Assembly (NCBI GenBank): GCA_038533995.1
Contig: JBCAXP010000003.1
Coordinates: forward strand, 1-35,613
From: Pseudomonadota bacterium
GTDB lineage: Bacteria > Pseudomonadota > Gammaproteobacteria > Steroidobacterales > JBCAXP01
Direction: 5' to 3'
Length of the DNA stretch: 35,613 nucleotides
Shown here: positions 32,117 to 32,852 of the stretch, in pieces
Layout: every line of letters starts with the position of its first letter
Position numbering within the stretch: the stretch's first letter is position 1
The notes under the pieces: generated by a model
The model's input: the letters and a program-made list of their open reading frames with translations, nothing else
The model's database searches: none
What the model was told of the DNA's origin: nothing
Program-made: the position numbers and the translations under genes

Positions 32117-32725
32117 GTGTACTCGGACACCCAGTATTTGACCAGCGCCAACGAGCGGGCGGGTTTCCCGCCAGACGTGGGTGTGGAGGTTGCCTTTGCC
32201 GGTCGCTCCAACGCCGGAAAATCCAGTGCAATCAATGCAATAACAGGCCGGAAAGGGCTTGCGCGAACCAGCAAGACGCCCGGCCGCACACAGCTGGTGA
32301 ACTTCTTTGCTCTGGATGATGAGCGGCGCCTCGTTGACCTGCCCGGCTACGGCTTTGCCCGTGTGCCGGCCTCGGTACGGCGCCACTGGCGCGTGCTGAT
32401 GACAGACTACTTCGAGGGCCGCCAGGCGCTGGCGGGTCTTGTGCTAATGATGGACATTCGCCGGGGAGTCACGGATTTCGACCGCCAGATGCTCGACTGG
32501 TCGGCCGCCTGTGGGTGCCCGGCGCACATTCTTCTGACCAAGGCCGACAAACTCAGCCGGGGTGCTGCGAGCAATACGCTCCACAAGGTGCGCCGGGAAA
32601 TCGGTGATGTCGCGACCGTTCAGCTCTTTTCCGCGTTGAAGGGCACCGGTGTCGGCGAGGCGCGGGAAGCGCTGGACAAGCTGCTGGGCCGCGAAGCAAA
32701 AAAAAGCCCCGGTGTTCAAAGCTAG
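32117..32725 (+). CDS. yihA: Ribosome biogenesis GTP-binding protein YihA/YsxC (EngB)
   Basis: [36 protein letters not shown] 32117 with GAGG RBS. Confidence 0.96.
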
Positions 32726-32741
32726 GGGAAAACACCGGGGC
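32698..32741 (-). terminator. Intrinsic terminator of the sRNA (and probably of polA read-through)
   Basis: gccccggtgtt-N14-aacaccggggc (11-bp perfect stem) followed by 8 T on the minus strand; overlaps the yihA 3' end. Confidence 0.9.
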
Positions 32742-32818
32742 AGTTTGTACCCGGCATGGGGAGGCCGGGTTCCTGCTCGCTCAGGGAGGGTAACGAGCAA
32801 GCGTTTTTCTAACGCTCA
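32698..32818 (-). ncRNA. Small regulatory RNA downstream of polA with three C-rich loops (sX13/ErsA/Spot42 positional analogue)
   Basis: Own sigmaE-type promoter; stems with loops UUACCCUCCCUGA, CUCCCCAU and UUCCCCUAGCUUUG; the last stem is followed by U8. 5' end estimated from promoter spacing. Confidence 0.8.
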
Positions 32819-32823
32819 CTTCG

Positions 32824-32852
32824 TTGGATATATCGATTCACGGAATAGTTCC
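32824..32852 (-). promoter_or_regulatory. sigmaE-type promoter of the sRNA
   Basis: Minus strand GGAACTA-N17-TCCAA. Confidence 0.7.

Follow-up and report, generated by a model that had tools for sequence, protein, structure and literature searches.

We argue that the spacer between polA and yihA in the genome of an uncultured marine gammaproteobacterium (assembly GCA_038533995.1, contig JBCAXP010000003.1) quite probably holds the gene of an independently transcribed regulatory small RNA (sRNA) of ~120 nt. The sRNA would be driven by a promoter of the sigmaE (RpoE/AlgU) type, would end in a terminator extending into the 3' end of yihA, and would repress mRNAs through its C-rich loops as a divergent member of the lineage of anti-hemB, sX13 and ErsA. 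The DNA analysed, here called the window, is a stretch of 35,613 nt, and all coordinates refer to the whole of it. The host assembly (4.7 Mb in 561 contigs, 83% complete) is the sole member of its family in the collection. A preliminary description of the locus had proposed an sRNA that combines an sX13-like architecture with an ErsA-like promoter, and this combination is borne out by the comparisons below.

Fold and conservation of the sRNA gene

The predicted sRNA lies on the minus strand at 32698..32819 and would be ~119-122 nt long. Its 5' end, judged from promoter geometry, is predicted at 32819-32816, and its 3' end within a run of eight U residues (U8). The 122-nt RNA from 32819 to 32698 begins 5 nt past the -10 element and runs to U8. 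Four hairpins make up the minimum-energy fold of exactly this RNA, and the fold energy of -53.1 kcal/mol compares with -32.9 ± 3.6 for shuffled sequences (z = -5.64; none of 200 shuffles equalled it). The first hairpin, stem-loop 1 (SL1; 32799..32817), has the stem GAGCGUU/AACGCUU and the loop AGAAA, and is an additional 5' stem devoid of a C-run that stands beside three hairpins with C-rich loops. These are SL2 (32775..32798), whose loop ACCCUCCCUG at 32791-32782 is anti-Shine-Dalgarno-like and the most conserved of all the loops; SL3 (32749..32770), with the loop CUCCCCAU at 32763-32756; and a Rho-independent terminator (32698..32741) with a 12-bp stem at 32741-32706, the loop UCCCCUAGCUUU and U8 at 32705-32698. 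The positions that had been proposed for promoter, stems and terminator are all within 1 nt of those found here.

When the spacer was compared by BLASTN with 41 genomes of the order, the sRNA body was 73-82% identical in 12 of them, the host genome counted, and RNAalifold on an 11-copy alignment returned the same four hairpins. A covariance model built from 11 relatives, R1, matches the window at 32699-32819 with 116.6 bits. R1 detects the sRNA in 107 of 151 genomes from the same order. In a sample of the class with one genome per family, it does so in 71 of 151, mostly as a single copy. Among the yihA loci of named gammaproteobacteria, 23 of 36 have an R1 match at the same place and on the same strand, including those of Pseudomonas, Alcanivorax, Sulfuriflexus, Granulosicoccaceae and Ferrimonas. 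We would like to point out that one sequence (L006) in R1 and in the alignments A1 and A2 stems from an unpublished genome, G016, which also enters the BLASTN tally of 41 genomes and the R1 and RpoE tallies of the order; the class-sample tallies of R1 and of the anti-hemB model RF02837 include two further unpublished genomes, G186 and G264. None of our conclusions depends solely on these three genomes. Two or three R1 matches each occur in G007, G178, G196, G232 and G270, and tandem copies of the sRNA are found at L096 (1205-1316 and 1501-1614) and L099 (1501-1622 and 1717-1821). Over 32699-32870, a contig of a marine-sediment metagenome differs from the window at 4 positions; the three listed ones (32831, 32833 and 32840) are in the promoter spacer and none of these falls in the sRNA. 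A second metagenome contig has 21 differences over 32810-32998.

Counts of structure, loops and promoter are based on 63 homologues (E <= 1e-6) from 62 loci. In these, 96.1% of the cells are paired versus 82.0% after column shuffling (0 of 500 shuffles reached the observed value), 26 of the 27 base pairs have changed on both sides in a compensatory way, and sliding the partner by 1-3 columns leaves at most 47% paired, in an alignment that was fitted to the model and so favours structure. In SL1, all 5 modelled pairs change on both sides, with 97.8% of the cells paired, and covariation is seen in 7 of 7 pairs of SL2, 5 of 5 of SL3 and 9 of 10 of the terminator. The three C-rich loops are kept along with the stems: CCUCCC or CUCCCU is present in the SL2 loop of 59 of the 63 homologues, and CCCC in the SL3 loop of 56 and in the terminator loop of 40. 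Conservation of both features in relatives had been named as a test of the proposal, and the proposal passed it. That the sRNA has a gene of its own is likewise supported by comparative evidence, namely the R1 matches across order and class, the covariation and the conserved promoter. A small-protein reading was considered and rejected: a 118-aa open reading frame (ORF) on the minus strand at 32444-32800 starts inside the sRNA and runs antisense through yihA, and the homologues vary by loop indels of many lengths.

Kinship with known sRNA families

At its gathering thresholds Rfam reports nothing in the whole window, and a standard pipeline would therefore leave the sRNA gene unannotated. In a permissive search four families matched at the same coordinates over their full model length, all below cut-off: anti-hemB (RF02837; 38.5 bits, cut-off 49.5, E 1.1e-7, positions 1-81 of the full model), sX13 (RF02232; 27.9 bits, cut-off 50, E 0.0015), Pseudomon-1/ErsA (RF01719; 25.4 bits, cut-off 50, E 0.0053) and Spot_42 (RF00021; 15.7 bits, cut-off 80, E 1.5). 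None of the four belongs to an Rfam clan, and a search of the whole genome gave no sX13 match at E <= 1e-5. The preliminary description had suggested checking sX13, ErsA and Spot 42, which are indeed seen below threshold at the locus; the best match, anti-hemB, was not named there, and no family reached its gathering score. Its suggestion of an undescribed family is not supported as it stood, as anti-hemB had been missed. RF02837 reaches its cut-off on three related RNAs in the yihA-convergent position of gammaproteobacteria (L050, L069 and L076, with 54.8, 57.2 and 51.4 bits). Since anti-hemB gives the best match to the window and reaches its cut-off on these relatives, the window sRNA is better regarded as a divergent member of a described kind.

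The idea that the RNA links known families stands. With filters off, R1 matches a bona fide sX13 (103 bits for RF02232) with 28.3 bits (E 6e-6) and the best anti-hemB locus with 28.8 bits (E 5e-6), the latter exactly at the annotated coordinates; ErsA is matched with 22-23 bits at the place annotated by Rfam. Conversely, RF02837 has matches at E <= 1e-3 in 76 of the 151 genomes of the class sample, only 9 of them above cut-off, and 58 of the 77 R1 places in this sample are also RF02837 places. Rfam cut-offs annotate 8 of the 23 R1-positive named yihA loci, 3 as anti-hemB and 5 as Pseudomon-1 (L056, L058, L063, L064 and L066, at the same position, with 135-138 bits for the Pseudomonas loci).

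The window sRNA and anti-hemB have in common a hairpin with the CCUCCCUGA loop, a second hairpin and a U-run terminator. The window sRNA differs in its extra 5' stem, which is without counterpart in the 81-position Rfam model, in the C-rich loops of SL3 and the terminator, in its sigmaE-type promoter, which the best anti-hemB match in the sample lacks, and in being flanked by polA and yihA and not lying opposite hemB. At this best anti-hemB locus (L111, genome G272), there is no GGAACTT, a TTGACA-like sequence is found upstream, and neither polA nor yihA occurs within 1.5 kb. Directly downstream of the match, on the same strand (L111 1006-1464, minus strand), lies a UPF0093 gene, which is followed by VanZ; UPF0093 is the HemJ-type protoporphyrinogen oxidase family. 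No ALAD (hemB) gene was found in the host assembly, which is 83% complete. At the 13 loci without polA, the longest ORF upstream of the sRNA belongs to varied families in 7 cases and to none in 6, and no ALAD is among them. According to the accessible part of the report, anti-hemB is a motif of beta-proteobacteria that was defined by computation and is likely to represent a non-coding RNA with a terminator (PMC1950547). It corresponds to ncS04 of Burkholderia cenocepacia J2315, which is 105 nt long, was detected on Northern blots and was co-purified with Hfq, as given in excerpts of two studies (PMC5688073, PMC4603805). A preprint of 2026 reads anti-hemB as antisense control of haem synthesis, with a link to low salinity, and sigmaE, ErsA and sX13 are unmentioned in the portion of its text that was available (10.64898/2026.09.01.748597).

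ErsA has the same position as the window sRNA, convergent with yihA/engB, and both have a hairpin that bears CCCC as well as a C-rich terminator loop. At the sequence level their promoters are of one class, GAACT-N17-TCAGA in the Pseudomonas copies and GGAACTA-N17-TCCAA in the window. The two RNAs differ in their 5' parts: that of ErsA is long, U-rich, largely unstructured and used for pairing, whereas the 5' half of the window sRNA consists of SL1 and the CCUCCCU hairpin SL2, both backed by covariation. The accessible parts of two reports describe ErsA as dependent on sigma22/AlgU and as acting with Hfq on algC and oprD (PMC8395346, PMC13613067).

With sX13, which is ~115 nt long, the window sRNA shares a place downstream of polA and three stem-loops with apical C-rich (4C/5C) motifs. 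The sX13 locus examined, unlike the window, lacks a sigmaE-type -10 element and has yihA nowhere within 1.5 kb. From the text available for the sX13 study, the C-rich loops act on G-rich mRNA motifs, and sX13 is always downstream of polA; its authors remarked that the locus resembles that of Spot 42 and found no sequence similarity (PMC3771888).

Spot 42 occupies the same polA-yihA spacer on the polA strand and has a similar G+C-rich terminator with a U-run. In a Ferrimonas locus, R1 has a weak match (18.1 bits, E 0.017) at the right place. It differs from the window sRNA in having neither C-rich loops nor a sigmaE promoter, and no significant match in sequence or structure was found. In the partial accounts at hand it is repressed by cAMP-CRP and has a role in carbon metabolism, whereas the window is without a sigma70-like site over 32000-33400, a CRP site not having been searched for. 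Homology of the window sRNA to Spot 42 is possible, with position and terminator as the only link.

The sRNAs MicA, RybB and MicL of Escherichia coli are repressing and sigmaE-dependent, and they use 5' seed regions, not apical C-rich loops. The logic that we propose for the window sRNA is the same, in that an envelope-stress sigma factor would drive a repressing sRNA as a negative arm, but in sequence, structure and locus these RNAs are unrelated to it. A sigmaE-controlled sRNA of Neisseria, encoded next to dnaE and 74 nt long according to the accessible part of the report (PMC3240639), was rejected as a relative for its different locus and its length. In a literature search, with subscription papers and supplements outside its scope, no paper joining anti-hemB, ErsA and sX13 was found; none mentioned both sX13 and ErsA, and the one paper that mentioned at least three of anti-hemB, ErsA, sX13, Pseudomon-1, Spot 42 and RpoE deals with another organism.

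Promoter, sigma factor and proposed mode of action

Upstream of the sRNA, the minus strand carries a -35 element of the sigmaE/AlgU type, GGAACTA (32846..32852), and 17 nt past it the -10 element TCCAA (32824..32828). GGAACT and the TC of the -10 element are invariant in 11 of 11 aligned relatives. The sigmaE-type promoter of the preliminary description is upheld by a comparison of the 49-nt segments upstream of the 63 homologues with 6510 control segments from the same loci: the loose motif GAAC[TC]-N15-18-TC occurs in 57 of the former versus 65 of the latter, and the strict motif GAACT[TA]-N15-17-TC[ACT][ATC]A in 31 versus 3. Among the 31 strict matches, the -10 element usually ends 4 nt before the model start, and TCCAA, used in 5, is one of the common forms. 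The strict pattern extended to GGAACT[TA] is rare in the host, the sRNA promoter being one of only two sites in the whole assembly (15 in reversed sequence), which speaks against a mere chance match. A consensus scan of 32000-33400 revealed no sigma70-like promoter. At L019 (G006) and L106 (G259), at about locus position 1501, the unit of promoter, sRNA and terminator is inverted as a whole between polA and yihA. That the promoter is kept in both inverted units speaks for the autonomy of the gene. The tandem copies speak for it as well: under the loose pattern, three of the four have their own GAAC..TC promoter, the one without being L099 1501-1622.

The host has an RpoE orthologue (TIGR02939, 243.1 bits; NCBIfam cut-off 236.15), the gene of which is truncated at a contig end. 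In each of five relatives that carry the sRNA, rpoE has GAACT[TA]-N16-TCTA[CT] ~75-79 nt upstream, which is the self-regulated sigmaE promoter that would be expected there. Within the order sample, 103 genomes have both the sRNA and RpoE, 4 only the sRNA, 13 only RpoE, and 31 neither; the 4 genomes with the sRNA only are all 73-85% complete assemblies. In one genus, g29, RpoE is present in 5 of 5 genomes and the sRNA in 0 of 5.

How the sRNA would work is suggested by its characterised relatives. Envelope stress would free sigmaE, and the sRNA would accumulate. Its single-stranded C-rich loops, chiefly CCUCCCU of SL2, would then pair with G-rich Shine-Dalgarno or 5' untranslated sequences of target mRNAs, and such pairing would lower translation of the targets, as it does for sX13 and ErsA. 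The U-rich 3' tail would be compatible with the use of Hfq. A crude search with no control found 56 sites just ahead of ORF starts where 8-10 nt are complementary to the SL2 loop. Of the 10 best sites, two belonging to 84-aa ORFs were set aside, and Pfam assigned the remaining 8 to ExbD, an HlyD-type lipoprotein, VWA, a BNR-repeat secreted protein, AraC and TPR, with no family for the other two. As the search had no control and gave no coherent set of targets, we do not use it as evidence.

Several observations weigh against a sigmaE-driven sRNA acting in trans. The level of ncS04 was unchanged under the stresses tested, in the results that could be consulted (PMC5688073, PMC4603805), and sX13 is constitutive, Hfq-independent and exclusive to Xanthomonadaceae according to the available text (PMC3771888). 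The 17-nt spacer of the window is a minority form, found in 2 of the 31 strict matches with the window included, as compared with 16 nt in 29. No sigmaE regulon is recognisable in the fragmented genome: GGAACT[TA]-N15-17-TC[ACT][ATC]A has 2 sites in the 4.7-Mb assembly, one of them the sRNA promoter, versus 15 in a reversed-sequence control, and a looser form has 26 versus 49. The genome scan yielded one other intergenic candidate with a downstream ORF. Since rpoE is cut at a contig start, the rpoE promoter of the host is unreadable. The joint absences of RpoE and sRNA are concentrated in the families f21 and f22 (13 genomes each, 0 of 13 in each for both) and in small f9 genomes, so that the co-occurrence reflects few independent losses, and reduced genomes lose many genes. 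The only sequencing run found to contain the entire stretch is a marine metagenome, probably its source, and no contig matching the stretch was found in three RNA or RNA-labelled runs. On the minus strand, the polA stop and the sRNA are not separated by any clear terminator, and read-through from polA followed by processing could therefore contribute to the sRNA. To these points we add the lack of a coherent target set in the uncontrolled search of loop complements and the fitted covariation alignment mentioned above.

Some of these observations would fit an sRNA that is real but not sigmaE-dependent, made from a housekeeping or some other promoter or cut from the 3' end of read-through polA mRNA, with GGAACT...TC being incidental. 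The missing terminator after polA and the published expression of sX13 and ncS04 would both agree with this alternative, as would the TTGACA-like sequence in place of GGAACTT at the best anti-hemB locus. At the bona fide sX13 locus, which keeps polA, an extended -10-like element, TGtTATAGG, replaces TC..A, in agreement with the constitutive expression of sX13. We nevertheless consider this explanation unlikely. It would leave unexplained a motif that stands at a fixed distance from 57 of 63 homologues and in 1% of control segments, recurs as a class at rpoE in 5 of 5 relatives, and stays with the unit in the inverted loci and in 3 of 4 tandem copies; moreover, 32000-33400 offers no sigma70-like site, and the sRNA is almost confined to genomes that bear rpoE.

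Flanking genes and a possible wider lineage

The yihA/engB GTPase gene (32060..32725, plus strand; ORF with Pfam MMR_HSR1) is convergent with the sRNA. Its TAG stop lies opposite the terminator loop, so that the sRNA overlaps the 3' end of yihA antisense by 28 nt, as had been described. The host YihA is 45-62% identical to YihA of named genomes, mostly uncultured Gammaproteobacteria of several orders. Upstream of the sRNA on the same strand is polA for DNA polymerase I (32915..35455, minus strand; ORF with Pfam DNA_pol_A and exonuclease domains). The TAG stop of polA is at 32917-32915, the -35 element follows 62 nt on, and the sRNA starts ~96 nt past the stop. As the 5'-3' exonuclease N-terminal domain of the listed polA ORF (GTG start, 846 aa) is matched only from profile position 55, this ORF is probably short at its 5' end and the true start further upstream, near the end of the window. 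Beyond yihA lie genes for a two-domain cytochrome c (31381-32004, minus strand), divergent from yihA, a DsbA-like thioredoxin (30441-31196, minus strand) and a YkuD L,D-transpeptidase with a Cds6_C NTF2-like domain (28988-30319, plus strand), all three of them envelope or periplasm proteins. A terminator-like hairpin on the plus strand at 32867-32886, with a T-run to ~32896, is located between the polA stop and the -35 element of the sRNA. Transcripts of yihA that escape the shared hairpin may cross the whole sRNA gene antisense and end at 32867-32896.

This arrangement raises the question of whether the element acts chiefly in cis, terminating transcription in both directions and regulating the yihA 3' end in antisense, and has no trans targets. 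The 28-nt overlap with the yihA stop in the terminator loop would fit such a role, and so would the plus-strand hairpin, which suggests that yihA transcripts may cross the sRNA gene. Of 57 homologous loci, 49 have a convergent yihA downstream, and in 17 of them the tblastn match of yihA stops at or within the sRNA 3' end; a polA upstream, on the sRNA strand, is found in 39 loci, both arrangements are kept in 36, and neither is kept in 5, two of which are the inverted units, located downstream of yihA and convergent with polA. Yet the gap between sRNA and yihA ranges from -23 to ~+600 nt, and this variable distance speaks against a main role in the antisense control of yihA. In addition, the sX13 and best anti-hemB loci have no yihA nearby, conservation within the RNA is highest in the apical loops of SL2 and SL3, well away from yihA, and a terminator alone would not account for the promoter and the covariation of SL1 to SL3. 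An element acting mainly in cis is very improbable. We give equally little credence to a decoy whose CCUCC loops mimic the 3' end of 16S rRNA or titrate an RNA-binding protein: several similar C-rich loops in one RNA and the absence of a coherent target set in the crude search would suit it, but regulation by sX13 required both the C-rich loop motif and the G-rich mRNA motif in the results accessible to us, ErsA binds target mRNAs in vitro, and the sRNA has no known protein-sponge motif such as GGA.

For the window alone, the sigmaE-type sRNA amounts to the ordinary annotation of a conserved sRNA gene. Its wider interest lies in the form that it represents, which roughly half of the sampled families in the class carry. 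The sRNAs under sigmaE control form the repressing arm of the envelope stress response, and work on them comes from a few model species, where they bear unrelated names. Each of the four Rfam families matched here has been described as specific to its lineage. We are inclined to think that anti-hemB/ncS04, sX13, ErsA and possibly Spot 42 descend from one ancient sigmaE-driven sRNA with anti-Shine-Dalgarno-like C-rich loops in the polA-yihA spacer of beta- and gamma-proteobacteria, of which the window form would be the common and near-ancestral version and the forms of model organisms derived ones. The best anti-hemB and sX13 loci do look derived in promoter and neighbourhood.

If this is true, the sigmaE promoter would have been lost in Burkholderia, Xanthomonas and the enterics, and the SL2 hairpin in Pseudomonas. 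The name anti-hemB and the proposed antisense role in haem synthesis would then reflect a secondary gene neighbourhood, and the haem reading would be corrected. A covariance model of the R1 type would let annotation pipelines find an sRNA that Rfam thresholds miss in most of its bearers. Common descent would also explain the persistence of an sRNA beside yihA and polA, and the data from Pseudomonas (algC, oprD, amrZ), Xanthomonas (G-rich motifs, virulence) and Burkholderia (Hfq) would become comparable as observations on one regulator.

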